Assembly: GCA_038874215.1 (NCBI GenBank)
Contig: JAVZCV010000001.1
Location: forward strand, 98,427 to 161,995
Direction: 5' to 3'
Source: Candidatus Micrarchaeia archaeon
GTDB taxonomy: Archaea; Micrarchaeota; Micrarchaeia; Burarchaeales; JAVZCV01
DNA length: 63,569 nt
Position numbers and translations under genes: made by a program. Below are positions 6,711-58,912 of this stretch, in pieces (positions within the stretch are counted from its first letter, which is position 1; each line of letters starts with the position of its first letter). Under the pieces are notes generated by a model. The model did not search any database and was not told the DNA's origin. It saw only the letters and a list, made by a program, of their open reading frames with translations.

Positions 6711-8006
6711 CTATCGTATAATCGCACCAATGCCTTTAAACTTTAACTTTATTTTGTTTTCTACCTCCTTCACTCTTTCAGGAAAAATGGAGAAGCGGAG
6801 CGTAACGCTCTTCTTTCCCTTAATTTCGTACTTATCAACAATATTCACATCAAGTATATCTTCGTCAATTCCCATCGCGAATTCTTTGAGAGTCTCATCA
6901 TCGTAGTCTTCAAAAACAAAGGAAAGATCTCTGCTCGCCGCTTCCACGCTTTTTATTTTCCAATCCCTCGTCTCTTGTTCATTCAGCACGCGTACGTATG
7001 GGAGATTAAGCTCAAATATTCTTTTACCGCAACGCATGCGAACGCGGTCTATTCCGACATCTTCTAGGATACCGAAATGCACAATCCCAGAGTTCAGGTT
7101 TTTCAAAGCAATTTTTCTGCCTATCATTGATTTGAGCCATGCGCGTTCGTGTTGCATCGCAGATATTACTTTGTCAGAACTCCACAGTTTATTCTCTATG
7201 TTGCCTATTCCTTTCGCACTCTTCGCAAAGAAAGACAAGAATTCCTCCTCGTTTTTGTCTTCTGATATCCTCGCAAGTTTTTCTGCATTCTCAAGGAAAA
7301 GCTTCCTTATCTCGCTTGCGTATGGGTTTGTAGTTTGTATCTGCGAATAAACATGGGGATTCTGGCCGAGGACACGCGCAACCATATCCATAGTTATCTC
7401 AAAAACAGGGGATGAAAAATAGGGAAGTTTCTTTGTGTCAATGCCTGCTTCGCCTATCGTTGCCCCCGCAGAGATGTAGATGTAGTGGGTTAGGACCTGG
7501 ACAACGGAGAGAAGCTTGTCATGCTCTTCTGCACTCGTCTCATATATTTTTGCTCCCTCCTCATCAAAAAATTGCGTTATTTCGTTGTATTTTGGCCCTT
7601 TTCGCACTGGAACAAAAACGACACACAAGCCAGCAAGCGATTCAACACGTGGGCCGTGCATGGGGTGGCAACCAGCAACCTCTCCTTCAAATTCAGACAT
7701 GGTCTTTATGACGGGCACCTTTACGCTCGTGAAGTCCATGAGGAGCGCATCGCGCTTCATTAGAGGAATTGCTTTTTTCACTGTTTCAACAGCCGCGCTT
7801 ATCGGAACAGACACAATAACAATGTCTGCGTTGCTTATCTCACTAAAATCGCATGCATCAACTCCTATCTTTTCTGCTGCTATTCTTGCTTTATCCACGT
7901 CTCTACTGATTATACCCACGTCAAATTTTCTTTTCATGAGGCGAGCGTAGAGCGCGCCGAACTCGCCCGTTCCGCCAATTATTAGAAGCCTGCTCTTCCC
8001 GCTCAT
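6711..8006 (-). CDS. tyrA: prephenate dehydrogenase
   Basis: Rossmann motif LLIIGGTGEFG, catalytic region GCHPMHGP, and the long C-terminal regulatory-type extension seen in archaeal TyrA. Confidence 0.85.
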   Translation of the reverse strand: MSGKSRLLIIGGTGEFGALYARLMKRKFDVGIISRDVDKARIAAEKIGVDACDFSEISNADIVIVSVPISAAVETVKKAIPLMKRDALLMDFTSVKVPVIKTMSEFEGEVAGCHPMHGPRVESLAGLCVVFVPVRKGPKYNEITQFFDEEGAKIYETSAEEHDKLLSVVQVLTHYIYISAGATIGEAGIDTKKLPYFSSPVFEITMDMVARVLGQNPHVYSQIQTTNPYASEIRKLFLENAEKLARISEDKNEEEFLSFFAKSAKGIGNIENKLWSSDKVISAMQHERAWLKSMIGRKIALKNLNSGIVHFGILEDVGIDRVRMRCGKRIFELNLPYVRVLNEQETRDWKIKSVEAASRDLSFVFEDYDDETLKEFAMGIDEDILDVNIVDKYEIKGKKSVTLRFSIFPERVKEVENKIKLKFKGIGAIIR

Positions 8007-8695
8007 GCAACCACGATGGAAAACTCGCTGAATTTAGCGCCTATTGCGCCACCCACCGCACCGAGAATTGGAAAGATGAATGTGGCGGCGACAAACCGTA
8101 TTATTGTTAGGAATATGTCGGGGGTTATATCTAGCCCGAGTATCTGAAGCAGGAGTTTCGCGTTATCAGGGCTCATGTACTTAACCATAGGTGCGAGGAA
8201 AGCACCGTATGCCGCAGGGCCGAAGAATGCGCTTATCACGAAGGAGACGAGCGTTGAAACAAAGGCGGCGAAAAGACCGCAAATAGCACCAACCCTTATT
8301 CCATCAGAAACGCGCAGGGCTCCGCCAGCCTCGTGCTTTAAGAAATAAGCTGACAAAAACCCGCCAATGAACCATGTTATGATGCTCAGGTTGAGAAGGG
8401 GTATGCCCATTAGGATGCCCATCGCTATCCCGCCTGCTATCGCTGGCGTTATCATAGTTCTCATGTCTATCGTTCTCGCAAAACCCGCCTTGAGGATTGT
8501 TGCCTTAGGGACGCTAACCTTTGCGATCCCTTTTTTAGCAGGGGTTATTATCTCGGGTGGTTCGGCGCCATGCTCAACGCAATGCACGCAAACAAGCCTA
8601 TTCCCTGCCTCGCGAGCACAGTCTGCACAAACCGCTTTAAAACAAAACCCGCATATTCCGACTGCTTCCCTGTCCCTGTGGTAAAAGCAAATCAT
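8003..8695 (-). CDS. membrane protein with N-terminal B-box/zinc-ribbon
   Basis: N-terminus CFYH..CGFCFKAVCADC..CVHC followed by 4-5 TM helices. ATGA overlap with tyrA. Confidence 0.6.
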   Translation of the reverse strand: MICFYHRDREAVGICGFCFKAVCADCAREAGNRLVCVHCVEHGAEPPEIITPAKKGIAKVSVPKATILKAGFARTIDMRTMITPAIAGGIAMGILMGIPLLNLSIITWFIGGFLSAYFLKHEAGGALRVSDGIRVGAICGLFAAFVSTLVSFVISAFFGPAAYGAFLAPMVKYMSPDNAKLLLQILGLDITPDIFLTIIRFVAATFIFPILGAVGGAIGAKFSEFSIVVA

Positions 8696-8725
8696 TTTAG
8701 CACCGATGTTTTTATGGAGTTTATA

Positions 8726-10003
8726 TTAAATATTTCTGCCATTTGCTCGCTCAACTTTTACGGTGAATTCAAACCTTGAGAAGACGTGCGTGCCCAAAAC
8801 TACTGGTTCAAATTCAATCAATATCTTCTCGTATTGGCTTTTTCCTGCACGGATTTCCACTTTCTTTTCTTCCCCTACATTAAGATTGCCTAAACGGGCC
8901 TCATCCTCAAGCGTTAGGAGAACTATTCCCGCTATCATCTCCCCACATATATTTTTCACCAAGAGTGATATTCGCCCTTCATCATCGGCAACGTTGTCTA
9001 TAATCTGAACTTCAAAAATCGGTGCAAGTCGTATCGGCCTCGTTGCGCTTTCTCCTTTGCCGTCTATGCTGCCTTCCCCTCTCTTAAGCTTTTCGGAAAT
9101 TACAGTTTCTTTCATTTTTCTCCTTATCTTGTGCTTTGTGCTGTATATTGAGCTGTACAGCAAGTAAATAATGGCAAGTGATAGTATAGCCGCTATTAGG
9201 ATTGGTGTGGAGTTTAGGATTTCTTTTTCAATATCGGGCAGTGTGGGCTCATATCTTATAGGGACAGGAGCACGCGGCGTTGTTTCAAAGTAGGGGCTTA
9301 ATGCCGAGATTGCTGTTGGCTGTGTGAGCAAAGAATTAACATTTTCTCCACGAGATGGGAGCATAACTCGTTCACCAATAGCGCTTCTGAAAACAATCGC
9401 ACTTCCTGCTGGTAGTAGGCGGGCATAACTCACCATCCTGCCGAAATCGGAGTCATTCTCAAGCGCTCGGAGAGTTTCGTCCCCTGCATCAGTGATTGCA
9501 TCCGTATCTCTGACCTTTACAACACGTGCCCTAATATTTTCGGTTTCTTTTTTATCAAGCTTGAACGGCTCGCCAGAAAGAACGCTGCTGATTCCACTCG
9601 CGCAGTGATGAAGGAGGGTGGTTTTCACATCGCCGCCTTTTGTAAGAGCAACCCTTGCCTCATCATCGCATTTTAGAGCAGAAATCATGTTGTCTATTTC
9701 GCCATATGTTGTTTGTCCTCTGCTTGGCAGGGCTATCGCACGCCTTCCGTCATTATCGGAATAGATGAAAAAACCCGGTTTTGTTGCATTTTCCAACCCG
9801 CTTGGTATTCCCTTCTCCTTCAATATCAGAAATTCTCTGCCACTTACATTAGCCGTTTGTATCCCTTGATTAAAAATTCCTCGGATTTCTTCGCTGTCAA
9901 TCAGGAGATTCTCGTGCGTGTCCACATTCCATCTCTCAAGCCTGAATGCAGAGAATGCCATCAATAGTGCGAGGAAGACGAAAAGTGGTGAGCGCCATTT
10001 CAA
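8726..10003 (-). CDS. hypothetical single-pass membrane protein (third gene of the MoxR-VWA operon)
   Basis: Signal-peptide-like N-terminus (MKWRSPLFVFLALLMAFSA), a central TM (ILIAAILSLAIIYLLYSSIY), ATGA overlap with the upstream VWA gene. Confidence 0.65.
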   Translation of the reverse strand: MKWRSPLFVFLALLMAFSAFRLERWNVDTHENLLIDSEEIRGIFNQGIQTANVSGREFLILKEKGIPSGLENATKPGFFIYSDNDGRRAIALPSRGQTTYGEIDNMISALKCDDEARVALTKGGDVKTTLLHHCASGISSVLSGEPFKLDKKETENIRARVVKVRDTDAITDAGDETLRALENDSDFGRMVSYARLLPAGSAIVFRSAIGERVMLPSRGENVNSLLTQPTAISALSPYFETTPRAPVPIRYEPTLPDIEKEILNSTPILIAAILSLAIIYLLYSSIYSTKHKIRRKMKETVISEKLKRGEGSIDGKGESATRPIRLAPIFEVQIIDNVADDEGRISLLVKNICGEMIAGIVLLTLEDEARLGNLNVGEEKKVEIRAGKSQYEKILIEFEPVVLGTHVFSRFEFTVKVERANGRNI

Positions 10004-10878
10004 GCAACCACCTTCTTAACACCCCTGAATAGCGCAGTCGGTAGCTCGTGAATGCTCTTAACACGCTCTACAACAATTCGTTGTTTCTCAATCTCTTCGG
10101 TGAAAGTGAGTGCACTGAACATCCCCCAAACTCTGCTTGCGTATTTGGCTTCAAGCAGGAGTGGGAGGTAAAGAATTCGCACGCCCCATTTTGAGAATTT
10201 AACAAGAAGCTCCAACGAGCATTTTTGTATGCTGCAGTCTTCCATATAGTCGTTCATGCCCCCTTCCGGCAGTCCATCGGTAAGTATCACGATGATTCTC
10301 TTACCTCCTCGTATATGCCATCGCATTCTTTCTAGTTCATAAAGTGCTTTATCAAGCCTTGTTGCGCCAGAACCGTTGCGGATAACCAGCTCGCGGTACC
10401 CTTTGAGTTGTATAGCATCGTCGCTATATGAAAGAATGAGGGGATTTGCCCGCGGTCCGAAAATTTCGCAGAGAGAAACGCACGCTATTTTTGCGAATGT
10501 TTGTGGCGCTTCTTCCTCCGCTATCTGCTTATTTAGAAAATCGCTCCTCCACCATGCAGTCATGGAATTTGAATCGTCATAAAGCAGGGCGATTCGGACA
10601 ACCCTTTCTTTTTGCACCCTTTTTCTTCCGACTGCAAATTCGGGCATTCTGCCATGTGTGCAGAAATTGCTTATCGTTTTGTACATGTTTATGTGGGACG
10701 AACCATCATATGGAACGTCAGAAACACAGTATTCGTTGGGCGGCATGAAATTCAACGCGCTGCTTATATGCTTTCCTACCGCTCTGCACTGGAGGATGAA
10801 TTCTTCGTATATGAAAGGGTCGTACTTTTTTGTGAGAATAGCGCAGAGGTTTGCAGCACGCTTTTGTGCTTCTTGCAC
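10000..10878 (-). CDS. von Willebrand factor type A domain protein
   Basis: MIDAS-like ALLYDDSNSMT (DxSxS) and downstream VILTDGLPEGG. Confidence 0.8.
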   Translation of the reverse strand: MQEAQKRAANLCAILTKKYDPFIYEEFILQCRAVGKHISSALNFMPPNEYCVSDVPYDGSSHINMYKTISNFCTHGRMPEFAVGRKRVQKERVVRIALLYDDSNSMTAWWRSDFLNKQIAEEEAPQTFAKIACVSLCEIFGPRANPLILSYSDDAIQLKGYRELVIRNGSGATRLDKALYELERMRWHIRGGKRIIVILTDGLPEGGMNDYMEDCSIQKCSLELLVKFSKWGVRILYLPLLLEAKYASRVWGMFSALTFTEEIEKQRIVVERVKSIHELPTALFRGVKKVVA

Positions 10879-10886
10879 GAAAACAC

Positions 10887-11750
10887 CTAAAGCTCTTCAG
10901 AAACACGCAATGCTATTTCCTTAACGATATTTACAGAGATATCGTCGGTCTCATCCCCTATGACGAGCGCCTGCTGGAATGCGGCTTCAAGGAAGGCTGT
11001 CTTCATGTCTGTTCCTTCTTCCATCGCAGCGGCACAGTATTTTGCCATTTTTATTGCTCCGTCAACAGATAGCCCCTGCCTTAGTGCTGTCTCTCTCTTA
11101 GCGATTTTTCTCGTTTCTTCGGCAAATTTCATTATTGCATTTACGACACGCTCGTTAGCTTTGCTTCTATCAATTAGCACATTTCGCTCAACGCTTGCGG
11201 GCGGGTAGTCCATGAATATTGGTACAAAACGCCTCTTCAAAGCCGAGCTCATCCTGAATGTCCCTTCGTCTCCTATGTTCGCAGTTGCTACCACAACCCA
11301 GTCTTCTGGTTTTTTTATTATTGCCTCTTCATGCTCAAGGGGTAGATAACCTCGGGAGAGAAGAAGGAAAAGGCCAGAGTATGCACTTGTAGGCGCCCTC
11401 GTGAATTCATCTATCAACAGATTTTTGTTTTCTTTGAGGCAGCGCGTGACGACCCCATCTTTGAAAAGTTTCTTTCCCCCTGAAAGGGCGAGTGGATGAA
11501 AACCGCCTATCAGTTGGTATTCCGTCATGCCTTCTGTTGCCTCTATTTTCAGAAAATCTCCAAAAAATGAGAGAACGTGCTCGGCGAGCGTTGTTTTTCC
11601 ATTGCCAGCAGGCCCGTAGAGCATTATCGGGTAGCCCATCTTTATGTAGCGGAGCATTTTCAGTATAACGGGTTCTTGCCCTTTCACTTCCGAAGTTGCG
11701 ATTATTTTTTCATAATCTTCTTTTTTTATGTCTGAAGGTTTTATTGCCAT
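10887..11750 (-). CDS. AAA+ ATPase, MoxR/AAA_5 (CbbQ/NorQ-like)
   Basis: Walker A LYGPAGNGKTTLA and Walker B LLIDEFTRA; lies 8 nt upstream of the VWA partner. Confidence 0.85.
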   Translation of the reverse strand: MAIKPSDIKKEDYEKIIATSEVKGQEPVILKMLRYIKMGYPIMLYGPAGNGKTTLAEHVLSFFGDFLKIEATEGMTEYQLIGGFHPLALSGGKKLFKDGVVTRCLKENKNLLIDEFTRAPTSAYSGLFLLLSRGYLPLEHEEAIIKKPEDWVVVATANIGDEGTFRMSSALKRRFVPIFMDYPPASVERNVLIDRSKANERVVNAIMKFAEETRKIAKRETALRQGLSVDGAIKMAKYCAAAMEEGTDMKTAFLEAAFQQALVIGDETDDISVNIVKEIALRVSEEL

Positions 11751-13007: not shown

Positions 13008-13305
13008 GCAGCGGATAGGTCGGGAGGCTAGGGGTCTCCTGTAACCACAAATCCCCTTGCGGTGGGACCGAAAGACCGGTTGCGCTTCTGTCGGGTGCAG
13101 GCACGCTCTGCGTACTGGCGTTGAGGTCTTGCCTCTTGGGACGATGCGCTATGTGAAACGGGTCAGGCCGGAAGGAGCAGCCCTAAGCATAAACGTCATC
13201 TTTCAAAAAAGACGGTGAAATGCATCGTGCTCAGAGCCAACAGGACCGAGCAAAGGCGCAGAAAACGGTCTGTATCCGAAGATGCAAGACCGGAGCCTCC
13301 GCTGC
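13008..13305 (+). ncRNA. ffs: signal recognition particle (7S) RNA
   Basis: Universal helix-8 motif GGTCAGGCCGGAAGGAGCAGCC at 13161-13182 and Alu-domain CCTGTAACC. The 5' GCAGCGGA..GGAGGCT pairs with the 3' AGCCTCCGCTGC. About 298 nt, the typical archaeal size. Confidence 0.9.
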
Positions 13306-13607: not shown

Positions 13608-13682
13608 GGGCCCATAGCTTAGCCTGGTTGGAGCGCTCGGCTGATAACCGGGAGGTCGCCGGTTCGAATCCGGCTGGGCCCA
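13608..13682 (+). tRNA. tRNA-Ile(GAU), intron-less
   Basis: Clean cloverleaf: acceptor GGGCCCA/TGGGCCC+A, D-stem GCTT/GAGC, anticodon stem CTCGG/CCGGG with loop CT-GAT-AA, T-arm GCCGG-TTCGAAT-CCGGC. Confidence 0.93.
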
Positions 13683-13750
13683 CTAATTGTAGATTCCTTT
13701 ATATACTTTTTTTACCATAATATTATCTAAAACGATTTGCGGGTTATTGA

Positions 13751-28546: not shown

Positions 28547-29437
28547 ATGAAAGTTAAAAACCTTCTTATCGGCATAACTGTTTTTCTTCTTGTTATCGTT
28601 ATTGTTGCGATAGGGTTGGTGTTAGTTATACCTGTGGCAGCGCCATCTCCCTGTGTAGGTGTTATAGAAGTGGATGGGCAAATAACCCTTAAAAAGCAAT
28701 CATACGGACTTTTTGAAACTCAGGGAATTTCAGCTGAGGAGATAGAGGAGATGATAGGGGAGGCAGAGATGAGGGACGATATAAAGGCTGTTGTATTTGA
28801 GATAAATTCGCCAGGCGGGTCTGTCGTTGCAACAAGAGAGATGTATGAGAATGTGAAAAGCCTGAAAAAGCCAAAGGTAGCATACCTACGAGAAATCGCC
28901 GCCTCGGGAGGATACTATGTTGCGGTTGGAACCGACTACATAGTCACCGATCCCGATGCGATTACGGGCAGCATTGGAGTTAGAGCTACATTTGAAGACT
29001 TGTCTGGACTATTTGAAAAGTTGGGTATAAATGTAACCACAATAAAATCAGGGGAGAAGAAAGACATCGGCGACCCGACGAGGCCGCTGAGCGAGGAGGA
29101 GAGAGCGATATTGCAGGGAATAGTTGATGAGATATTTCTTGAGTTTAGAGAAGATGTGAGGGAGAGCAGGGGAAGTCGGCTGAACAGCACGGCGTTCGCA
29201 GAGGTTCTTGATGGGAGGATATTAACAGGAAGACAGGCGAAAAGAGTGGGGCTTGTAGATGAGGTAGGCAACAAAAAAACCGCAATTAGGGTTGCGGGAC
29301 GGATGGCGGGCATTGAAGGTGAACCAAGGGTATGCAAGATAGAGCGGAGGGTTGGCCTTTGGGAAAGCATGCTGTCTGGTTTGGCCCGTGTGCTTCCATT
29401 AGAGAACTCACAGAGGATAAACCTGTATTTTTCTTAA
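28547..29437 (+). CDS. sppA: signal peptide peptidase SppA, 36K type (S49)
   Basis: EINSPGGSV and AASGGYY motifs, N-terminal TM anchor. Start set to the ATG at 28547 (MKVKNLLIGITVF). Confidence 0.9.
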   Translation: MKVKNLLIGITVFLLVIVIVAIGLVLVIPVAAPSPCVGVIEVDGQITLKKQSYGLFETQGISAEEIEEMIGEAEMRDDIKAVVFEINSPGGSVVATREMYENVKSLKKPKVAYLREIAASGGYYVAVGTDYIVTDPDAITGSIGVRATFEDLSGLFEKLGINVTTIKSGEKKDIGDPTRPLSEEERAILQGIVDEIFLEFREDVRESRGSRLNSTAFAEVLDGRILTGRQAKRVGLVDEVGNKKTAIRVAGRMAGIEGEPRVCKIERRVGLWESMLSGLARVLPLENSQRINLYFS

Positions 29438-29481: not shown

Positions 29482-30717
29482 ATGGAAAAAGGGGAAGATA
29501 CGAGCTCATTTGTAGAACTGCTTTTTGATAATTTTGGGGAAAGTGGGATTGAAGTGTATTGGCGCTTTTTGATGGGGGAGAGCCCCGAAGAGATAATGCT
29601 TGCCATGCGTTTGAGCGAAGCGCAGACGTTTAGAATTATTGAGTTCATAAAAAACATGAAGGGAGATGTTGGTGGGCTCTTTTATGGTGAGAAGAAACCA
29701 TGGGTAAAAAAGTACAAGGGTGAGGACGTTTTTTTGGAGATTAAAGAGGAGAAGGTAGGGATACGTGAGGATGCAGAAGTTATACATGAGGCGAGAATGG
29801 AGGACATGAAAAACGAACTGCTTGTGTATGGGCGCTTTGGTTCAAACGGTTTGAAAGCATGGGCCATGCTCCTTGCAGGTAGGAACCTAGGGGAGGTGAT
29901 AGCTAATACAGGCATGAGTGCTCTTGAGATAGGGAGGATGATAGAGTATCTGGTCTCTCCAAAAATAGAGATAGAGGAAAGCAAGGAGCAGATGGGAGAA
30001 ACAGAGACAGAAAAAAAAGAGATGGTGGAAGATGAAAGCCTCTACACTTCAAAGACTCTTGTAACCGCTATTCGGCCTGGTGTTGCTCCTTTCTCACTAC
30101 GAGATAGTTATGATATGCCTCTCTTTGATAGAAGTAGGGTTAGAGGTACAGACATCTTTAAACTCCAAATATTGATAATTGTGGGTGTCATTCTTCTTCT
30201 TATACTTATATACTTTTATTTTAAACCTCTTGTGAGCCCGACGAGCGTGGTAGTAGAACCAAGATTAACGATGAGTAGTGATAAAGACCGCTATTTATTT
30301 AACGAGAGTGTAAGAATTTTTGGCTCTGCGATAAACTGTGGCAATAACGTCAGTATATATGTTTCGGGGAATTTTTTGGATGAAGTTGCTGTTGAAGATG
30401 GGCATTATTCAAAGAGCATGCAGGGGCTCTCACCAGGCCAGCACGAGATAACGGCAAAATGTGGAAACACCACTACCACCCTATCCATTCTGGTTTTTGA
30501 ACCAGAATGTAGTGAGGGGGTTGTCGCTCCTTGCATTGATTCGCTTGGGTGCAGCGGTACAAGAACGTGTAGAAATGGCCGATGGACGGCATGCTACGTG
30601 AGAAGGATATGTACGCCTGGGGAAGAAGTAGGTTGCATGATGCCAGATGGCTGCAGTTTTGGAAAGAAAGTATGCAATGAGTGCGGGACGGATTTTGGAC
30701 CGTGTAGGCGGGTATGA
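29482..30717 (+). CDS. membrane-anchored protein: duplicated cytoplasmic HTH-like module, one TM, Ig-like plus Cys-rich ectodomain
   Basis: Repeat LLFDNFGESGIEVYWRFLMGESPEEIMLAMRLSEAQTFRIIEFI versus LLVYGRFGSNGLKAWAMLLAGRNLGEVIANTGMSALEIGRMIEYL. TM ILIIVGVILLLILIYFYF. 11 Cys in the last ~66 residues. TATA-like TTTATAAT about 25 nt upstream of the ATG at 29482. Confidence 0.7.
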   Translation: MEKGEDTSSFVELLFDNFGESGIEVYWRFLMGESPEEIMLAMRLSEAQTFRIIEFIKNMKGDVGGLFYGEKKPWVKKYKGEDVFLEIKEEKVGIREDAEVIHEARMEDMKNELLVYGRFGSNGLKAWAMLLAGRNLGEVIANTGMSALEIGRMIEYLVSPKIEIEESKEQMGETETEKKEMVEDESLYTSKTLVTAIRPGVAPFSLRDSYDMPLFDRSRVRGTDIFKLQILIIVGVILLLILIYFYFKPLVSPTSVVVEPRLTMSSDKDRYLFNESVRIFGSAINCGNNVSIYVSGNFLDEVAVEDGHYSKSMQGLSPGQHEITAKCGNTTTTLSILVFEPECSEGVVAPCIDSLGCSGTRTCRNGRWTACYVRRICTPGEEVGCMMPDGCSFGKKVCNECGTDFGPCRRV

Positions 30718-31514
30718 ACATGGGTGCAAAAAAGGCGTTTGTGTTCACAATTGATGCTTTCATATCGCTTACCATAGCGGTGATAATAATCTTTGCGATG
30801 TTGCTTCTTATCCACATCCCCCGCATACATTATGCAACCTACGAGCAAGAGTACGAAATAGCAGGCGATACACTCAGGGTATTGGACACGCTTAGGATTG
30901 GGTATATAACTGAAAACCCACACTGGAGTAAGGATGCGGTGGCGAATGCCCTCGGTGCAGAGGAGAAACATAGCGTTCTTGAACAAATTGTTGCTTACGC
31001 ATCCCAGCCCGGTGGGCTTGATCCATATCGGGTGGATTGTAGCAACCCAGGCACAATCGCAACTGATTTTGCGTGTGATTTTTTGGAAATGATGATTCCG
31101 AAGAGGTATGGCTATAGTTTAGAGCTAAACAGATTTGGTGCGTGGGAGACGATTGCAAAGCGTGAGAAGGCATATAGAAAGCTGCAGGCAGTAAGCACGC
31201 GGATAGTTTATGGCCCTGCATATACGACGATAAGCGAGGAGGCATATGGAACCATTGACCCATTCAATCCGACAAGCGGTGCGGACATTGAACCGAGGTC
31301 TCTTTACGTGATTGAGGGCGAATCACCATACTGTTATATGAGATGCCGGGGGTACCTGGGTTTTGGGAATGCTTATAAGAGCAGCGATGGTAGGATAGAA
31401 TCCCAGTTCCTTGACCCTTGTACGAGGGACCCTTGTAATCCCCCGAGCAACCCCGTATATCGGAAGGGCAATATAATCGGACCGTATGTGGTCAGGCTTG
31501 TGGTGTATATATGA
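30714..31514 (+). CDS. type IV pilin-like protein (class III signal peptide)
   Basis: N-terminus MNMGAKKA|FVFTIDAFISLTIAVIIIFAMLLL. ATGA overlap with the upstream gene. Cys-rich C-terminus. Confidence 0.7.
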   Translation: MNMGAKKAFVFTIDAFISLTIAVIIIFAMLLLIHIPRIHYATYEQEYEIAGDTLRVLDTLRIGYITENPHWSKDAVANALGAEEKHSVLEQIVAYASQPGGLDPYRVDCSNPGTIATDFACDFLEMMIPKRYGYSLELNRFGAWETIAKREKAYRKLQAVSTRIVYGPAYTTISEEAYGTIDPFNPTSGADIEPRSLYVIEGESPYCYMRCRGYLGFGNAYKSSDGRIESQFLDPCTRDPCNPPSNPVYRKGNIIGPYVVRLVVYI

Positions 31515-34249
31515 AATGCTGTAGTAAGAAGGGATTCCTCTTCACTCTCCTTGTCTTTATAGTTCTTGTCTTTATCGTTTTCTTGGCTTACATAATGGTA
31601 AAAAATGTTGAAGAGAAGGAGAGAACAAGAGCTGAGGAGTTTAAGATAAAAACCCTTCTTTCTATTTCGCGCTCGCTTAGCAAAGAAGAGATAAACGAAA
31701 TGGCCAGAACCGCAAATACGCGCGCCCTCTACTGTTTCAACAAATACGTGTATTATAACGGTTACATTACTGATGAGGATGGTGATGGGAATATCGTTGA
31801 TGATGAGGTGAAGGATAAGATAGAAGAAATAATCGTTCGCGGTATAGCGGACCCAGAAAGGCCAGTAGAAAATTGCATGGGTGGAGCAGACTTGGAAACA
31901 ATAGTAAGCAAAATTGAAAGTAGTGTTGGCATCGTTGGTTTTTCTGCTGATGTAGACGTAGAAAACCTTCAGGTAGAACAGCAGGACCCGTGGAGTATAA
32001 AATTTGAGTACGACATGGTGATTAGTATCAGAGATAGCTCCCCAGAACCCAAGATGAGTTTGCACCGCAGAGTGCACGTAAGCAACAGGATTCCCATAAC
32101 AGGGCTTGTGGACCCTGTTACGGCATTGGAGAGCAGGAGTAAGACGCAGCACACAGGTATGGATAGGTTCATCAAGCAGATTTACTACCCAAAACGCATT
32201 CTTGTCTATACGAATGCGAGGGAAAATGATGCTGGGTTAAATGCAGAGTCCTTTAACAACGACCTTGTCAGAATTCTTGGTGAGCAAGGCTATACTGTAA
32301 CAGTCATGGACAGGTACGATGCCTCGGGTAATCTCAAAATAGATGCGAAGCTCACAGATAGCCTGCTCGCTAATTTTTCGCAGTTGTGGGTTATATCCTC
32401 TCGTGATTGCTCTGGTTGCAAACTTGATGAAGATGATCCTTTGGGGGAGATGGAGAGGGCAGCGGTAAGAAAGTTCCATAAACGCGGCAATGGGATAGCG
32501 CTGTTTTCATACGGGCATCCCCAGGATGCTAAGGTATTTGCCAACAGTATTCTTGAAGCTCTTGGGATGATGAGAAGTGACGGATATGCTGAGTTTGTGG
32601 ATGGGGAAGTTGATAGAAAAGATGGGATAAATTTAACCGAATCGGATATATCTTACAGTACCAGCTCGCCTATATTTTACAATGTTGATAGGATAAGCGG
32701 TGGTAAAAAGGAGGCGAAAATAGAGATTGCGCTATCCAACCCAAAGGCCGCACGCATTCTCTGGGACGAGCGTACGGGAAAACAAGGCAATGTTGTTGTG
32801 GTCGTGGACGAGGATACGGCTGGGGAGATTATAGGGGGCCGTGTTCTTCTTGATTCTTCTTTTACCAGATTGCGCGACGCAGATGTAGTGGCGACCGCGA
32901 GTGGTGCTTATGATGACGGGGGTATAACGGATTATGAGACTGCACAATACGCGGTTAACATCGCAGATTACCTTGCGAATAGTCCTCAGCGCCCACCCGA
33001 AGGGTATGTCATGCTCCTTACAGAGAAACATGGCGGTGATGGTTTAAGAATCCGTGGCAAAGGTTGGTTTTATGGAAATTGGACTGAAATTTTTGATGAA
33101 TATGCAAACATATTAGTAACGGATAACCCCAAGCACGTGTTGGAGGTTCTTTCTAATCCTAGTGATGCGAACTATGAGAAATACGTGAAATTCGGTGCCT
33201 TCATCATAACTGTGGAGCCGAGCATAGATGTGGGTAGAAGCGACCCAGGGACATACGATGATACTGGCACGCCTGGGACGGACTCATCGTGCAATTATCT
33301 TGGCGGAACTTTTGATGATGGTATGGGAAACACCTGTGATTATGAAGTTTATGCAGAAGATCCCAATGGCCCTGGGGGTTGTTTTGACTGCTTACGCTGG
33401 AGCAAAGGTTGTAGTGTAGGTGGTGTTACACACTGTGAATTAAAGCCAGAGGTCTGGGCTAACAGAATAGACAGGCCTTTTATAGTTTTTCCAGAGTTTT
33501 CAGACTATAAAGATAAACTTGAAACGTACAGGCACGGCATACTGATAGATACGCATACGTGGAAAAATGCTGATAATATTGATATGGATGATGTGAGGGC
33601 AGGGGACGATGATAACCCCGATTCACCGTCTAACGCTTACTGGCGCATATATGACATTGAAGGAATGCGCGAACTATCAGTGTGCCTGTTCTACGAGAGG
33701 AACAACAGCGCACCAAGTTTTCTTAAGAGGCACACCGTGCAGTGGGATGAAACAGGTAGCACGGATTTGGATGAAAATGGAATACAGAGTTTTGTAGTGT
33801 TCAGTAGGGAGGATACGAACAGATGGGACTACACGCGTGTTGATTACCTATTCTGGCGGGGAGAAGGCGAAAATCTCGTGAATACTGGGGGCGACCCAAA
33901 TGAAGACCCGGATAACCCGTCTCAACCGCCTAATCCACCGTGGCTCGGCGACAATAATGCTGTTCCTGGGGAATATGTGATAAAGGGCATGCCGGGTTGC
34001 AAATATTCTGCGATGTGTACGTGCCCCTTACTATCACCACTCAGATTGTTTAGGTTGAGTGGGGATGATGTAGAACGGTTCGGTATTGTCCAGAGCGTTG
34101 ACCACGATAATGATGCGAGTACTCCTCCTATTGATATAAACATCGCATGTAGGGATTACGTAAAAAACAAGGGACGCCCAGACGAGAAAACTTATAAGGC
34201 GGGTGCAGCATGCGTTGACGATGATTTCAAAGCGGCAAACTGTCCTTGA
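31511..34249 (+). CDS. giant (912 aa) pilin-like surface protein
   Basis: N-terminus MKCCSKKG|FLFTLLVFIVLVFIVFLAYIMV. ATGA overlap with the upstream gene. Large D/G/C-rich extracellular region. Confidence 0.75.
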   Translation: MKCCSKKGFLFTLLVFIVLVFIVFLAYIMVKNVEEKERTRAEEFKIKTLLSISRSLSKEEINEMARTANTRALYCFNKYVYYNGYITDEDGDGNIVDDEVKDKIEEIIVRGIADPERPVENCMGGADLETIVSKIESSVGIVGFSADVDVENLQVEQQDPWSIKFEYDMVISIRDSSPEPKMSLHRRVHVSNRIPITGLVDPVTALESRSKTQHTGMDRFIKQIYYPKRILVYTNARENDAGLNAESFNNDLVRILGEQGYTVTVMDRYDASGNLKIDAKLTDSLLANFSQLWVISSRDCSGCKLDEDDPLGEMERAAVRKFHKRGNGIALFSYGHPQDAKVFANSILEALGMMRSDGYAEFVDGEVDRKDGINLTESDISYSTSSPIFYNVDRISGGKKEAKIEIALSNPKAARILWDERTGKQGNVVVVVDEDTAGEIIGGRVLLDSSFTRLRDADVVATASGAYDDGGITDYETAQYAVNIADYLANSPQRPPEGYVMLLTEKHGGDGLRIRGKGWFYGNWTEIFDEYANILVTDNPKHVLEVLSNPSDANYEKYVKFGAFIITVEPSIDVGRSDPGTYDDTGTPGTDSSCNYLGGTFDDGMGNTCDYEVYAEDPNGPGGCFDCLRWSKGCSVGGVTHCELKPEVWANRIDRPFIVFPEFSDYKDKLETYRHGILIDTHTWKNADNIDMDDVRAGDDDNPDSPSNAYWRIYDIEGMRELSVCLFYERNNSAPSFLKRHTVQWDETGSTDLDENGIQSFVVFSREDTNRWDYTRVDYLFWRGEGENLVNTGGDPNEDPDNPSQPPNPPWLGDNNAVPGEYVIKGMPGCKYSAMCTCPLLSPLRLFRLSGDDVERFGIVQSVDHDNDASTPPIDINIACRDYVKNKGRPDEKTYKAGAACVDDDFKAANCP

Positions 34250-34259
34250 TGGTGTAAAC

Positions 34260-34820
34260 ATGAAAGCGCAGGCAAGCATTGAGATGATGACTGTTATAGC
34301 GTTCATGGCCATCGTGCTTGTACCGCTCATAGTTATTCTATACCATAACACGCAGAATAGCCTTGACCGCATAGCGGTTGAGAGGGCACAGGACACGGCT
34401 GCTATGATAAGCGAAATTGTTTTTGAGGTATGGGCTGAGGGCGGCATGTATAGGTTTGATGCGACAGACCCGACAAAGCCAAGCGCCACTGCGGAAGCTG
34501 TCAGGACGGTGATGGTGCCGCCGAGGGTCAAGATGGTTGCGGTTGGAAGCACAACACAGATAGATCCGAGCGATCCGAGCAATCACGAAAAGGGGAATGA
34601 GATTATTATATTCTTGGAGACTACTTCGGGTGTTATGCAGGTAGCGGTTAAAACAGTACCTGTGGTAAGGGAATCCGAAGACCCCAATAAACGCATAACA
34701 AAATGCGAAAACAGGTTTGGCGGAGGTGGAAAATACTGCTATGTCCCGTCAGGACCTATTAGGATAAGAGTTCGGCATGACCCCGTACAAAAAGATGTTC
34801 TTGTGGTGGAGAGAGCATAA
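34260..34820 (+). CDS. type IV pilin-like protein (class III signal peptide)
   Basis: MKA|QASIEMMTVIAFMAIVLVPLIVILY matches the archaeal class III signal consensus (K/R-G/A-Q-x-S-x-E). Lies 10 nt after the upstream stop. Confidence 0.75.
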   Translation: MKAQASIEMMTVIAFMAIVLVPLIVILYHNTQNSLDRIAVERAQDTAAMISEIVFEVWAEGGMYRFDATDPTKPSATAEAVRTVMVPPRVKMVAVGSTTQIDPSDPSNHEKGNEIIIFLETTSGVMQVAVKTVPVVRESEDPNKRITKCENRFGGGGKYCYVPSGPIRIRVRHDPVQKDVLVVERA

Positions 34821-34821
34821 C

Positions 34822-35364
34822 ATGAAAAAAGCACAAGCAGCGAATGAATTCGTTATGTTCTTCGGCTTTTTCCTACTCATATTCATGATTTTTCTTATAT
34901 TAGTAGTAGTTGAGGTAGGGGGGGAGGTAGACAGGGAAAAAAAGAGGCAGGCATACTACATAGTTGCGGATTTTGCAAGGGAGATAAACGATGCAGTTAT
35001 GTTGGGCGACGGCTACATGAGATACTACGAGTTTCCGCAAACAATAGCGGGGAATAGATACAACGTCACGATAAGACGCTCTGGTTTTGTTGAACTCTGC
35101 GTGATAGATGAAAGTAGCACGGCATGTTCACCTAAAAGTTTCTATGTATTCGCACCGTTGCTTATTAGAGATGGCTTTGAAGCAGATAATTTTGGAGATC
35201 CAGCTATAGACATTCTAACGTTTGATGGTGGTTTAAGTGTAGACCCTAAAGATGATGGGTGGATTGTGGATACGGTAATAGGGGATGGAGGAACCCAGCA
35301 TGATACTCTGGTGATTAAAAACGATAATGGGAAGATAAAATTAGGGCAGAAGAAAGTTGCATAG
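34822..35364 (+). CDS. type IV pilin-like protein (class III signal peptide)
   Basis: MKKA|QAANEFVMFFGFFLLIFMIFLILVVV; 1-nt spacer after the upstream stop. Confidence 0.75.
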   Translation: MKKAQAANEFVMFFGFFLLIFMIFLILVVVEVGGEVDREKKRQAYYIVADFAREINDAVMLGDGYMRYYEFPQTIAGNRYNVTIRRSGFVELCVIDESSTACSPKSFYVFAPLLIRDGFEADNFGDPAIDILTFDGGLSVDPKDDGWIVDTVIGDGGTQHDTLVIKNDNGKIKLGQKKVA

Positions 35365-36039
35365 GTGGTTATTTTGGAAAGGCGTTGGTTAAGGGCTCAA
35401 ATATACGCTCTTGATGCGATAATGGGTGCCATAATATTCACGATAACCCTATCGGTTATATTTTTCTACTGGTGGGCGATGGGTCCGATGCTCTATGACC
35501 AGAGGGAAGATATGAAGGCCGAGGCTGTACGTGCGGCAGGCATGCTAATGACATCCGGGAATCCAGAAAACTGGGATGAACTCGTCAATCCTAACGATTA
35601 TTCTACGTTTGGTGATGTAAGGCAGGTTGGGTTGATGAGAGATATGAATACGAACGAAATTAGCAAGGAGAAGATGGGTAATCTTACCGAGATGATAGGT
35701 TATAACACAATCGTAGGTCCGCCAGCTCTCGGACCAGGAAGCCCAGATTATGATTTTTATTACAAGGTGCGCGAGCTTTTAGGGATATCCTATCATTTCA
35801 ACATAACTATCGTTGATGTTGATGTTAGCAGTGGTGAAGAAAGGGAGAGAATAATAGCGAAGGCAGGTGTTTGCCCAAGACCCGATACCCCTGCAACAGG
35901 TTGCAGTTGCACAGTTAATGACGCATACTGCGTCTGCCGCCTCATGAATGTTGTCACTGTTGAGAGGAACATAATTTATGACGATGGAGCTGGCAAAAAG
36001 CCTGTTATTTTGAGGTTGCAACTCTGGTCAACCGCCTAA
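35365..36039 (+). CDS. type IV pilin-like protein
   Basis: GTG start abutting the upstream stop. The N-terminus ..RRWLRA|QIYALDAIMGAIIFTITLSVIFFYWW parallels the FTIDAFISL N-terminus of the 30714 gene. Confidence 0.65.
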   Translation: MVILERRWLRAQIYALDAIMGAIIFTITLSVIFFYWWAMGPMLYDQREDMKAEAVRAAGMLMTSGNPENWDELVNPNDYSTFGDVRQVGLMRDMNTNEISKEKMGNLTEMIGYNTIVGPPALGPGSPDYDFYYKVRELLGISYHFNITIVDVDVSSGEERERIIAKAGVCPRPDTPATGCSCTVNDAYCVCRLMNVVTVERNIIYDDGAGKKPVILRLQLWSTA

Positions 36040-36098: not shown

Positions 36099-36677
36099 GT
36101 GGCGATGGTTTACGCAACTTCCCAGTCGCAGAAAGGAGGTATGGAAATACCGCATGGGGTGAAAAACGAAATATTGGCTGGTATAAACAATCTGCAAAAA
36201 ATAAAGCAGACGCTTGAAGCATACGAATGCGGGCATCCTGCATTTAGACCAGAAATAGAAAAAATAATCAATAGGATAGAGAGGCAGATGGAGGATTTGA
36301 GGAGGGAGGGAATAACAAGGGAGGAGTTAAACAGGATTTTGGAGTTTGTTAAAAATATCCAAGTGCAACCGATTGTCGTTGCTGCAAAAAGGGAGGCAGA
36401 AATTAGGGGTATGAAGCCAGCAACAGAAGGTCTGATGAATAGCGTCATGCATGAGGAGAGGAGAGGACATGAACCCGTCAGGATGACAAAAACGTTGCAG
36501 GGCGCCTTGATAGAACTCATGAATGCTGCGGCAAAAGATGGAACACAGACTGTTAGGCTTGTTTGCGATGAAAAGCTATGTGAGGAGATAATGAGAATTT
36601 TGAGGACACAGTTTGCTTGGCGACCGCCAAAAGAAATAAGTAGGAACGGCAATACGCTTACTGTAAATTTTTCGTAA
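36099..36677 (+). CDS. hypothetical protein
   Basis: 192-aa ORF (GTG 36099 or ATG 36105, preceded by AGGGGTGG). Helical, charged, no recognised motif. Confidence 0.5.
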   Translation: MAMVYATSQSQKGGMEIPHGVKNEILAGINNLQKIKQTLEAYECGHPAFRPEIEKIINRIERQMEDLRREGITREELNRILEFVKNIQVQPIVVAAKREAEIRGMKPATEGLMNSVMHEERRGHEPVRMTKTLQGALIELMNAAAKDGTQTVRLVCDEKLCEEIMRILRTQFAWRPPKEISRNGNTLTVNFS

Positions 36678-56747: not shown

Positions 56748-57809
56748 CTAATACACGATTTCTTTCAGCTTTCCCATTTCCATTGCGTTCTTTATTTCTC
56801 GCGCTATTCTTCTTCCAGTGCTCATCGGCTCATCAAATAAATAAACAGAGTATGGCGAGCCGTCTGGGAAAAGATTAGTGCCCGCAACTATGCGGGCGCT
56901 TATCTCAAACACATAGAACCTGAAATCCTCATCGCATATCATCTCTATGCAGAATGGCCCCGGTATCCCTCCCATCAGCCTATCGGCAGCTTCTACAACG
57001 CGCCTGCCCATCTCCATCATCTCTGGAAGCAGGCTCTCCCTTACTGCAACGGGCGCATTCCCCACAACTCCGAAAGAAGGCTCTACTATTACTCCTGCGC
57101 TCATCGCCCTGTGTATATCCTCCACATTCGTCTCAATCCTCCTGTCTATTGATAGAAGCTCAATTGAGCCCTTTGAAGCGGGGTATGCGTCTTTTGAGAG
57201 GGGTGTGTAGAAGTAGTGAGGGTAGAAGCGCGTTCCCACTATGTACTCCTGTATCATCGCCCCTTCCGTGCTTTTTCCTTTCGTTTTTGCAAGAAAGTCC
57301 TCATAGCTGCTCACAACGATATAACCCTTTCCGCCCTTCGCACCTCCGAATTTCACGAGGCAGGGGCGGTCTATTTCCTCTGGCTTGAATATTTTTGGCA
57401 CGCGGAGTTTTGCCTCCCTCATCCACTCAAACATCTTTTCTCTGCTCCTCTCCCACATCAGGACTCGCCTGTTTCCGAATATCGGTATCTCAAGCTCCTC
57501 AAGATTTTTCACATACTCTATAAGCGAGCCGTGCGGAATTAGAATTGCGTTTTTCTCAACGAGCTCGCCAACAACATCGGGAAGGTCTGAGAATTCCTTC
57601 ATGCATATCAGCTCATCGGGCTTCGCAAGCCTGAAAGAGCGGTAAACCTCAAGCTTTCTCGGTATTGAAATCCCTATCGTCTTTATTCCTTCTCTCCTTG
57701 CCCCGTGGAAAATTTGGAGAGCGCTGTGCGAGCATATCGTCGCTATTTTTGGCTCCTCATACTCTTCAAGAATTTTGTGAATCCTTTCCCTCGCTATCAA
57801 CACAATCAC
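56748..57809 (-). CDS. purP: 5-formaminoimidazole-4-carboxamide ribonucleotide (FAICAR) synthetase PurP, paralog 2
   Basis: ATP-grasp PurP pattern (IATICSHSALQIFHGARREG, IPIFGNR, STGRRIA). Start placed at the GTG at 57809, 5 nt after the upstream stop; the track's ATG at 57905 would overlap the upstream gene by 91 nt. Confidence 0.85.
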   Translation of the reverse strand: MIVLIARERIHKILEEYEEPKIATICSHSALQIFHGARREGIKTIGISIPRKLEVYRSFRLAKPDELICMKEFSDLPDVVGELVEKNAILIPHGSLIEYVKNLEELEIPIFGNRRVLMWERSREKMFEWMREAKLRVPKIFKPEEIDRPCLVKFGGAKGGKGYIVVSSYEDFLAKTKGKSTEGAMIQEYIVGTRFYPHYFYTPLSKDAYPASKGSIELLSIDRRIETNVEDIHRAMSAGVIVEPSFGVVGNAPVAVRESLLPEMMEMGRRVVEAADRLMGGIPGPFCIEMICDEDFRFYVFEISARIVAGTNLFPDGSPYSVYLFDEPMSTGRRIAREIKNAMEMGKLKEIVY

Positions 57810-57814
57810 CCAAA

Positions 57815-58912
57815 CTATGTTGTGATTTCCTTCATCCTTCCAGTCTCCTCCGCTTCCCTTATCTCTATCGCTATTCTCCTTCCCGTGCTCATAGGCTCTC
57901 TCCAAAGGTATTCCGTGTATGGGGTGAATCTCGTGCCTGGCGAACCGGGCACGCGCATGCTCACATCAAAAATGACTGGCTTCTCGCCTTTTTCTTCTGG
58001 GACTACTGCACCCTGCAAAGCAAAAGGCCCGATTATCCCAGGAGGATATTCTTTTTTGCTCGCCTCAACGAATCTCTCACCAAGCTCAAAAACCTCTTCA
58101 AGAAGGCTTTCCCTGAGGGTGCATGCAACATGGCCAACCTCTATGTTTTTCACGCGCACGTATTTGAGAAGCTCCAGTTGCTCCTTTGCGGGCAGGCGCA
58201 GAATTCCGTCTATATTCGTCTGCCTTCTCATGTCTATCCCGAGCAGTTCAAGCTCGCCGCTCAGCGGAGAGTAGAAGTAGTTGAAGTTGAACTGCGCCCC
58301 AACGACATACTCCTCTATCACGGCGCTCTCAAGCCCTTCCTTCGTTATGATGCACTTTTCAAGCATCTCCCTCGCCTTCTGCTCATACTCCTCATAGCTC
58401 GTTGCGAAGAAGAATGCCCTCTCATACGAGCGCTTTGCCTCTGGCGCCTTCACTATGACGAGCGTGTCTATCTCCTCTGGCTTGAGCTGGCGGGGAAACC
58501 TTATTCCCGCTTTCTTAAGCAGGTAGTACTGGTTTTTCTTTTCGTAGCGCTCCTCAGCCCTGAGCATCCACCTGTTCCCGAAGATGGGCACATTGAATTT
58601 TTTCTCAATATTATCGTATCCGACATAAACTGAGAAGGAGCGGTTTGGGACGAAAACGCATTCAAGCTCTTGCAGTTTCTCCTTAACAGGCTCATTCACG
58701 ATATCTGCGAATTTATCAAGCAGTATTATCTCGTCAATTATCCCGATTTCCCTTCCATGGGCGTTCCTGCACCTATGCCGCACGTATGTTTTCTCCCTTC
58801 CCCTCTGGCATACTACGACAGTTTTTAGCCTCTCCTTTTTCGCACCTTCGCATATGTCAAGCGCGGAGTGGCTTCCGAGAGAGCAAACAGCTACCATTAA
58901 TCCGTTATACAC
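57815..58912 (-). CDS. purP: FAICAR synthetase PurP, paralog 1
   Basis: VCSLGSHSALDICEGAKKE, VPIFGNRWMLR, STGRRIAIEI: same family architecture as the downstream gene. Confidence 0.88.
   Translation of the reverse strand: MYNGLMVAVCSLGSHSALDICEGAKKERLKTVVVCQRGREKTYVRHRCRNAHGREIGIIDEIILLDKFADIVNEPVKEKLQELECVFVPNRSFSVYVGYDNIEKKFNVPIFGNRWMLRAEERYEKKNQYYLLKKAGIRFPRQLKPEEIDTLVIVKAPEAKRSYERAFFFATSYEEYEQKAREMLEKCIITKEGLESAVIEEYVVGAQFNFNYFYSPLSGELELLGIDMRRQTNIDGILRLPAKEQLELLKYVRVKNIEVGHVACTLRESLLEEVFELGERFVEASKKEYPPGIIGPFALQGAVVPEEKGEKPVIFDVSMRVPGSPGTRFTPYTEYLWREPMSTGRRIAIEIREAEETGRMKEITT

Follow-up and report, generated by a model that had tools for sequence, protein, structure and literature searches.

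A conserved five-gene module of type IV pilin-like proteins in Micrarchaeota, a candidate minor-pilin complex

Among the archaeal type IV filament systems described to date, the pilin sets of systems (clades) 1 and 2 of Makarova, Koonin & Albers (2016) combine dissimilar class III (prepilin-like) proteins with one large class III 'component' per operon, and may be located away from the ATPase and TadC genes that serve them in trans. The locus considered here resembles these sets in both respects. It consists of six consecutive genes (g1 to g6) in a 63,569-nt stretch of the genome of a Candidatus Micrarchaeia archaeon (contig JAVZCV010000001.1, positions 98,427 to 161,995; hereafter the window), the last five of which form a module of type IV pilin-like genes. 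A reading of the window made without database searches (the sequence-only reading) had likened this module to a minor-pilin or tip-adhesin set. Here, we compare the locus with its relatives in genomes and metagenomes and with known filament systems, and propose that g2-g6 probably encode minor pilins that form the initiation or tip complex of a surface filament, with motor and peptidase supplied in trans.

That class III or minor-pilin-like gene sets can stand apart from the motor is already known in archaea. Euryarchaeal ATPase/TadC modules serve pilins encoded in trans, and duplicated motors share one pilin set (Makarova et al. 2016, PMC4858521); because such separation has already been described, it is not an anomaly in the module. 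The cultivated micrarchaeote Mia14 has two type IV pilus (T4P) systems, with T4P ATPases, TadC and a single A24 prepilin peptidase (Golyshina et al. 2017, PMC5498576). One of its loci, MIA14_0252-0260, contains an ATPase, TadC and seven class III genes (PMC5498576), with the ATPase and TadC genes directly adjoining the class III genes, whereas the module has none within 10 kb in 79 related loci. We liken the module to Mia14 and to the arCOG pilin families by gene content and description. Archaeal type IV filament systems are also the subject of a 2026 preprint, in which system 1 is recorded for DPANN and the module g2-g6 is not described. It is the module itself that is new, being uncharacterised and without a family model or a solved structure.

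The Epd minor pilins of Methanococcus maripaludis (EpdA-C), which are essential for piliation, belong to DUF361/Class_IIIsignal, carry the motif QXSXEXXXL and are cleaved by EppA. As in these proteins, g4, g5 and g6 have Q at +1 (the first residue after the predicted leader), g4 fits QxSxE (QASIE, with QSSLE in its orthologues), and the leaders are short and basic in both. A link between Q at +1 and EppA specificity was reportedly made by Szabo et al. in 2007. The two sets differ in that g2 and g3 have F at +1, matches to the Pfam family PF04021 are all below threshold, and the 11-gene epd locus includes an ATPase, two TadC genes and a peptidase, none of which is near the module.

In bacteria, the priming complexes GspH-I-J-K of type II secretion systems (T2SS) and those of type IVa pili (with PilY1) comprise four to five minor subunits that are encoded together, all but one of them acidic at position 5. 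The exception, the largest subunit, bears additional domains and serves to cap or initiate the filament (PMC5207764), a description that g3 fits. Only one subunit in bacterial T2SS and T4P minor-pilin sets is without Glu5; for T2SS and Gram-positive T4P this subunit (the GspK family) exceeds the others in size, and the pattern has been proposed to mark the subunit with which a nascent filament begins (Ng et al. 2016, PMC5207764). The comparison with the module is an analogy: neither sequence nor Foldseek comparison detects a similarity, the large subunit is second in the module and last in bacterial T2SS sets, two module subunits are acidic at +6, and the bacterial secretin and outer membrane are absent in an archaeal cell. 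The Sulfolobus bindosome (BasABC with BasEF) is made of small class III proteins thought to form a short surface structure and not a long pilus. Its genes come together with an ATPase and a membrane protein of their own, unlike the module, and BasB matches g4 at E 0.022 (cut-off 230 bits), with only the signal and helix covered.

Prepilin-like N-termini and their conservation in related loci

Each of the proteins g2 to g6 begins with a short basic leader ending in [KR]-[GA], directly followed by the only N-terminal hydrophobic segment of the protein. With a slash marking the predicted end of the leader, the window sequences are MNMGAKKA/FVFTIDAF (g2), MKCCSKKG/FLFTLL (g3), MKA/QASIEMM (g4), MKKA/QAANEF (g5) and ..RRWLRA/QIYALDA (g6), as the sequence-only reading had quoted them. 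By hydropathy this segment comprises about 20 residues in each protein, and in the AlphaFold models of g3 and g4 it opens a long helix that is followed by an alpha/beta domain (g3) or by beta strands (g4). We applied a FlaFind-like rule of our own, in which [KR][GA] is followed by 20 residues with a mean hydropathy of at least 1.5, without K/R among the first 18 and with no more than one charged residue. It selects six of the 62 window genes, namely g2-g6 consecutively and an M50 peptidase, and a six-frame scan of the window yielded no further credible pilin-like open reading frame (ORF). Because only 11 of 920 (1.2%) other ORFs in related loci pass the same rule, the chance of five rule-positive genes in a row is about 1e-10.

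Related loci were collected by pattern scans with narrow subfamily alignments. The first genome scan with g3 alone gave no match, and g3, g1 and a 55-sequence profile, used in word-indexed searches of proteins, each retrieved nothing but the query. The genome set comprises 50 loci from GTDB species genomes, nearly all titled Candidatus Micrarchaeota, Micrarchaeia, Bilamarchaeaceae or 'ainarchaeum' and four just 'archaeon'; for the metagenome set 49 loci were fetched, and the 29 longer than 4 kb were analysed. The core order g2-g3-g4-g5-g6 recurs in the 50 Micrarchaeota genome loci and in the 29 metagenome loci, and a 12-kb Logan contig carries an identical copy of the window locus. Among the genome loci, the recurring order is CarS (on the minus strand), SppA, g1, g2, g3, g4, g5, g6, with the orthologue counts given in Table 1. 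The metagenome loci form a second subfamily in which the core is present, mostly without SppA, CarS and g1. All named public records found for module proteins are 'hypothetical protein', and the NCBI records among them are in Candidatus Micrarchaeota or Bilamarchaeaceae. Judging from these sequences, the module appears to be conserved throughout Micrarchaeota.

The N-terminal motifs are specific to each position in the operon. The rule is passed by 66 of 74 g2, 71 of 79 g3, 53 of 67 g4, 54 of 66 g5 and 54 of 61 g6 members, and among these motif-positive members +1 is F in most g2 (61/66) and g3 (67/71) proteins and Q in all g4, g5 and g6 proteins. An acidic residue occupies the canonical position +5 in g4 (53/53) and g5 (54/54) and is off by one, at +6, in g2 (65/66) and g6 (54/54); g3, as a GspK-type subunit, has no acidic residue at +1 to +12 in any of 71 members. 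The full alignments show the same: in g4 (35 sequences) Q(+1), E(+5) and a Pro of the helix do not vary, and in g5 (36 sequences) Q(+1) and E(+5) do not. Each gene slot keeps its own motif (Table 1) among species whose g3 proteins are only about 25-45% identical. At the level of sequence, near-invariant helices over divergent globular parts, with a buried carboxylate at a fixed position, are the pattern of helix-stacking filament subunits, and [KR][GA] at the helix boundary, Q or F at +1 and an acidic residue at +5 or +6 look like hallmarks of prepilin processing and helix stacking and not of plain anchors. The class III signals first noticed in a single genome are therefore borne out by position-specific motifs conserved over about 80 orthologous loci.

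The six genes are a single operon, a view supported both by the junctions and by the fixed gene order in related loci. The stop codon of g1 and the start codon of g2 overlap in an ATGA, as do those of g2 and g3; g3 and g4 are separated by 10 nt (with GGTG inside), g4 and g5 by 1 nt, and the GTG start of g6 abuts the TAG of g5. These overlaps and spacers, all of which agree with those reported earlier, fit translational coupling of the six genes. The 44-nt gap between SppA and g1 contains a TTTATAA element, a candidate archaeal promoter from which a leaderless g1-g6 transcript could start.

Subunit architecture and the case for a minor-pilin tip complex

The largest subunit is g3, with 912 aa compared to 180-266 aa for the others. 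Its conserved helix and alpha/beta domain (residues 9-220) are followed by a ThuA/DUF4350-like insert (residues ~227-504) and a conserved Cys-rich C-terminal region (residues ~510-912). An exhaustive HMMER search with g3 returned 151 cluster representatives at E<=1e-3, nearly all of which start with ..[KR][KR]G-F-[FL]-F-[TV]. Many of these relatives are 480-620 aa or ~310 aa long and share the N-terminal 220 residues, most of the longer ones also the C-terminal third; one, P0003 (887 aa, 31% identity), is full-length. ThuA or DUF4350 is present in secreted bacterial proteins whose match is confined to the insert, and in Foldseek searches of the PDB the insert is weakly like flavodoxin/GATase folds, consistent with ThuA. 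The AlphaFold model of g3 has a helix at residues 7-55, then helices and a sheet at 144-195, with predicted local distance difference test (pLDDT) values of ~90 for residues 10-210; for the insert and some of the C-terminal region the prediction is poor. In its size, acid-less helix and extra domains g3 is of GspK type, and by analogy it is a candidate tip or initiator subunit. As a separate observation, P0003 is the closest relative of g3 and has the same architecture including the insert, and its gene is solitary, flanked by genes for a PolD large subunit and a dehydrogenase, with g2, g4, g5 and g6 not nearby.

The smaller subunits form two old paralogue pairs, g2/g6 and g4/g5, because iterative searches merge g2 with g6 and g4 with g5. 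The AlphaFold model of g4 shows one helix of 62 residues (2-63) followed by six to seven beta strands (mean pLDDT 73.6), and the five Cys residues of g6 are near its C-terminus. The window module is a divergent copy with two lineage-specific additions, the g3 insert and a cytoplasmic extension of g1. Bilamarchaeaceae loci contain, at most 3 kb 3' of g6, a sixth g4-like gene (MKGQVSTEL.., ~150 aa) that is always paired with a ~365-aa gene, and its product is a candidate major pilin; one of these loci, L025, also has a gene for a KaiC/RecA-like ATPase.

In the model that we favour, g2-g6 would be made with very short class III leaders ending in [KR][GA] and would be inserted into the membrane by their N-terminal helices. 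A prepilin peptidase of PibD/FlaK/EppA type, encoded elsewhere, would cut the leaders after [KR][GA], and an ATPase and TadC encoded elsewhere would lift the subunits from the membrane and stack them via the N-terminal helices. The first, topmost subunit would be g3, displaying its ThuA-like and Cys-rich domains, with g4/g5 and g2/g6 beneath. These g3 domains would be turned outward, as would the segments of g1, g2 and g6 that are rich in Cys, and the major pilin would be encoded elsewhere. We favour a minor-pilin tip complex over a major-pilin locus because there are five dissimilar subunits in fixed order, one copy each, four of them acidic and one large and acid-less, a composition in which the tip-like character suggested earlier finds support. 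The predicted position of g3 at the top is by analogy, because g3 fits exactly the bacterial rule that the Glu5-less subunit is also the largest.

Genes for the assembly machinery are not found near the module, as had been stated for the window. Outside the operon, 40 window ORFs were scanned with Pfam and none was found to be a T2SE ATPase, T2SSF/TadC or Peptidase_A24, these ORFs being ordinary archaeal housekeeping genes (CarS, GGGP synthase, FtsZ, AlaRS, EF-2, RNA polymerase (RNAP), pyrimidine and purine genes). A TadC/FlaJ platform is absent from the 63.5-kb window and from 10 kb on either side of the module in the 79 related loci, and an A24-type GxGD motif, for which we used a motif of our own and not a hidden Markov model (HMM), is absent from the flanks of the related loci. 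In neither the window nor the related loci do ATPase, TadC and pilin genes stand together as in a complete archaeal T4P locus. Because motor genes were not found near any of the 79 loci, and the lack of ATPase and TadC is thus itself conserved, the separation of module and motor is a conserved property and not an accident of the window.

Several results weigh against a minor-pilin complex. A T2SE-type Walker A, again sought with our own motif and not an HMM, is missing from all 1,357 ORFs located up to 10 kb from the module in the 79 related loci, and the 22 nearby ORFs that have any Walker A and a length of at least 300 aa resemble Orc1/Cdc6, AAA+/Mg-chelatase-like and other unrelated ATPases. 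The link between module and motor is consequently drawn by analogy, with the genome viewed through the 63.5-kb window. The curated thresholds of Pfam and NCBIfam are reached by none of g1-g6 and by none of 55 g3 relatives, and the matches to Class_IIIsignal, DUF7266, DUF7287, DUF7288, DUF7262, DUF7311, TadE, BasB and ComGE are all sub-threshold (E 0.002-0.2). In Foldseek searches of the PDB neither the g3 nor the g4 model has a match at E<=0.001, and profile searches of PDB sequences gave no match; the topology of the two models agrees with that of solved pilins or archaellins without being diagnostic of them. Lastly, the acidic residue of g2 and g6 is at +6 and not at the canonical +5.

The HMM check that had been proposed for the pilin families was therefore negative at curated thresholds. 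Class_IIIsignal (PF04021, formerly DUF361) matches no window protein at E<=1 and is matched below threshold by 3 of 35 g4 and 2 of 36 g5 orthologues (E 0.005-0.07), and Pilin_N (the old DUF1628) is in no result list. We take DUF7266, DUF7287, DUF7288, DUF7262 and DUF7311 to be pilin-like families. The best examples of their sub-threshold matches are g5 to DUF7266 (14.5 bits, cut-off 27.6) and g6 to DUF7288 (15.2 bits, cut-off 27); among orthologues a minority match the haloarchaeal DUF72xx/DUF7311 families, at E>=0.0017 and below the gathering threshold. No sequence homology was found between g3 and GspK.

Of the other explanations, the one that survives best, and that we still consider unlikely, is that g2-g6 form a self-contained short pseudopilus like that of the T2SS or the Sulfolobus bindosome, with g4 or g5 as the repeating subunit and g3 as the cap, which organises or extrudes surface proteins and is not a long adhesive pilus. 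The five-member composition is that of GspG-K, the weak N-terminal match of g4 to BasB points the same way, and no separate small major-pilin gene is beside the set in the window or in most related loci. However, archaeal major pilins are typically stand-alone genes elsewhere (PMC4858521), the sixth g4-like gene of Bilamarchaeaceae, 1-3 kb away, could be the major subunit, and neither g4 nor g5 is marked as abundant.

It is improbable that the N-termini are uncleaved signal anchors and g1-g6 a membrane-anchored envelope complex, concerned with S-layer anchoring or membrane biogenesis, tied to SppA and CarS and independent of T4P machinery. Such a complex would agree with the set never adjoining ATPase or TadC genes in 79 loci, with its synteny in Micrarchaeota with the housekeeping membrane genes SppA and CarS, with its single-copy, phylum-wide occurrence, as for a housekeeping complex, and with the lack of matches to curated pilin families. 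Plain anchors do not account for [KR][GA] exactly at the helix boundary, for the nearly invariant Q or F at +1, or for a buried acidic residue fixed at +5 or +6 in four subunits and absent only from the largest; moreover, linkage to SppA and CarS is mostly absent in the second subfamily, being found in one of 29 metagenome loci (L079). That unrelated or spurious ORFs happen by chance to have N-terminal transmembrane segments one after another, a view favoured by nothing beyond the absence of database family matches, is excluded for practical purposes because the six genes have same-order orthologues in dozens of genomes and the motif has a background rate of 1.2%.

The g1 protein, flanking genes and other features

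The first gene of the operon encodes a single-pass membrane protein which, from hydropathy and Cys positions, has a cytoplasmic N-terminal part of ~215 aa, a transmembrane segment at ~220-250 and an extracellular remainder that ends in a 12-Cys domain (residues 340-410). This domain matches a ~117-aa protein with a transmembrane segment and Cys residues, encoded between SppA and g2 in 27 Micrarchaeota loci, at E down to 2e-14. The earlier description of g1 as a non-pilin membrane protein thus stands as to the membrane, but g1 is not an arbitrary gene, as its C-terminal 12-Cys domain corresponds to the conserved first gene of orthologous operons; going by this sequence conservation, g1 is a conserved membrane partner of the module. 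The cytoplasmic extension of ~215 aa has no match in any related locus and no family match. Within it is an internal duplication of ~50 aa (residues 12-63 and 113-164) with a repeat score of 60, against a shuffle mean of 31 (standard deviation 5.9), and one of 300 shuffles scored higher (63). The duplicated module looks like a helix-turn-helix. A role of g1 as a membrane-bound helix-turn-helix regulator, prompted by this module, stays a guess with no family match in its support. The earlier count of four Cys-rich products among the six agrees with the Cys contents in Table 1.

Table 1. Positions and properties of features of the operon, the rest of the window and related loci. Positions are those of the window unless a related locus (L) is named; in the N-terminal motifs a slash marks the predicted end of the leader, and triplets are the commonest at -2/-1/+1.
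Feature	Positions	Strand	Description	Conserved N-terminus	Orthologues in 50 genome loci
CarS					22
SppA	28547-29437	+	SppA-type signal peptide peptidase (S49); Pfam Peptidase_S49/NfeD1b_N recorded for the identical Logan copy		37
TTTATAA	29452-29458	+	TATA-box-like, read from sequence; centred 27 nt 5' of g1 ATG
g1	29482-30717	+	411 aa, 13 Cys		27
g1 extension	29482-30138	+	residues 1-219
ATGA	30714-30717	+	g1 stop/g2 start overlap
g2	30714-31514	+	266 aa, 6 Cys	M-R-A/FIFSLDAFVAFTLAL (also RA/FIFSLD); RAF 40/48	47-48
ATGA	31511-31514	+	g2 stop/g3 start overlap
g3	31511-34249	+	912 aa, 19 Cys	KKG/F[LF]F[TV]	50
g3 insert	32189-33022	+	ThuA/DUF4350-like domain
g4	34260-34820	+	186 aa, 2 Cys	MKG/QSSLELL; KGQ 29/40	32-37
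g5	34822-35364	+	180 aa, 2 Cys	RG/QVATEF; RGQ 22/42	38-44
g6	35365-36039	+	GTG start, 224 aa, 5 Cys	MKG/QYFSFDAIIA; KGQ 31/35	40-48
g7	36099-36677	+	192 aa; TATA-like element ~36070
MoxR/VWA operon	8003-11750	-	four genes
Membrane protein of this operon	8003-8695	-
Protein without family of this operon	8726-10003	-	425 aa
VWA_CoxE protein	10000-10878	-	weak match
MoxR-type AAA_5 ATPase	10887-11750	-
SRP RNA	13011-13279	+	RF01854
tRNA-Ile	13608-13683
PurP-type gene pair	56748-58912	-	DUF1246/DUF1297
Sixth g4-like gene, L023	13494-13934
Sixth g4-like gene, L024	15181-15633
Sixth g4-like gene, L025	11562-12014
Sixth g4-like gene, L050	13859-14314
KaiC/RecA-like ATPase, L025	14463-15149
AAA+/Mg-chelatase-like ATPase, L066	13251-14669
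Upstream membrane/secreted protein genes, L044	83-5620
P0003, L097	7865-10528

The neighbours named earlier, SppA upstream and a ribosomal/RNAP cluster downstream (EF-2, S7, RNAP), were found as described. The window SppA is 43-54% identical to the SppA encoded directly upstream of the module in 37 of the 50 Micrarchaeota loci, and the window CarS is 38-46% identical to its Micrarchaeota counterparts, values from which the source is probably a divergent Micrarchaeota-like DPANN archaeon. SppA may be co-regulated with the module. We also considered that SppA clears the pilin leaders, which we think unlikely given a leader length of 3-10 residues and a linkage that is mostly absent in the second subfamily, and we retain it as conserved synteny only. 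Downstream, 59 nt 3' of g6, g7 encodes a soluble protein with its own TATA-like element, no Pfam match and no counterpart in any related locus, and is probably outside the module.

Other genes near the module recur in subsets of the related loci. In the second subfamily a 470-aa AAA+/Mg-chelatase-like ATPase (537 aa in L072) is encoded by a conserved neighbour ~1.5 kb 3' of g6 (L055, L060, L065, L066, L067, L072 and L075); its Walker A, LLVGPPGTGKSMLAQAI, is not of T2SE type. In L044, and also in L006, L015 and L028, four to five consecutive genes for membrane or secreted proteins (~240-480 aa) without a Pfam match are located 4-9 kb upstream of the module, followed by genes for a PIN_5 ribonuclease and a Pab1020-type RNA ligase.

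Elsewhere in the window is a four-gene operon encoding a MoxR-type AAA_5 ATPase, a weak VWA_CoxE protein, a 425-aa protein without family and a membrane protein. MoxR/vWA pairs are possible pilus regulators in some archaea (Makarova 2016); the window operon was set aside in this role, being 18 kb from the pilin operon and unlinked in related loci. A signal recognition particle (SRP) RNA, just upstream of tRNA-Ile, was called by the bacterial large SRP model RF01854 (64.3 bits, cut-off 60); the protein markers of the window are all archaeal. The longest ORFs of a tandem PurP-type gene pair overlap by 91 nt, so one of the two start codons is probably further downstream.

Bearing on DPANN cell contact

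Life attached to other archaea is a trait of DPANN archaea such as Micrarchaeota, and links resembling pili have been seen between the cells; to our knowledge, the proteins that make this contact are not known. That the module could serve DPANN symbionts to attach to or connect with host cells, or that its assembly could proceed with no canonical type IV pilus ATPase, is in our estimate a long shot, and attachment is a reading that the data allow. Existing understanding of the type IV filament mechanism is unchanged by the module. What has been defined is a conserved five-gene module with a predicted assembly order, in which a giant acid-less subunit would be on top and four acidic subunits below, together with motifs by which it can be annotated elsewhere (RA/FIFSLD, KKG/FFFT, KG/QSSLE, RG/QVATE and KG/QYFSFD). 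Its proteins may offer concrete candidates for the apparatus of DPANN cell contact.

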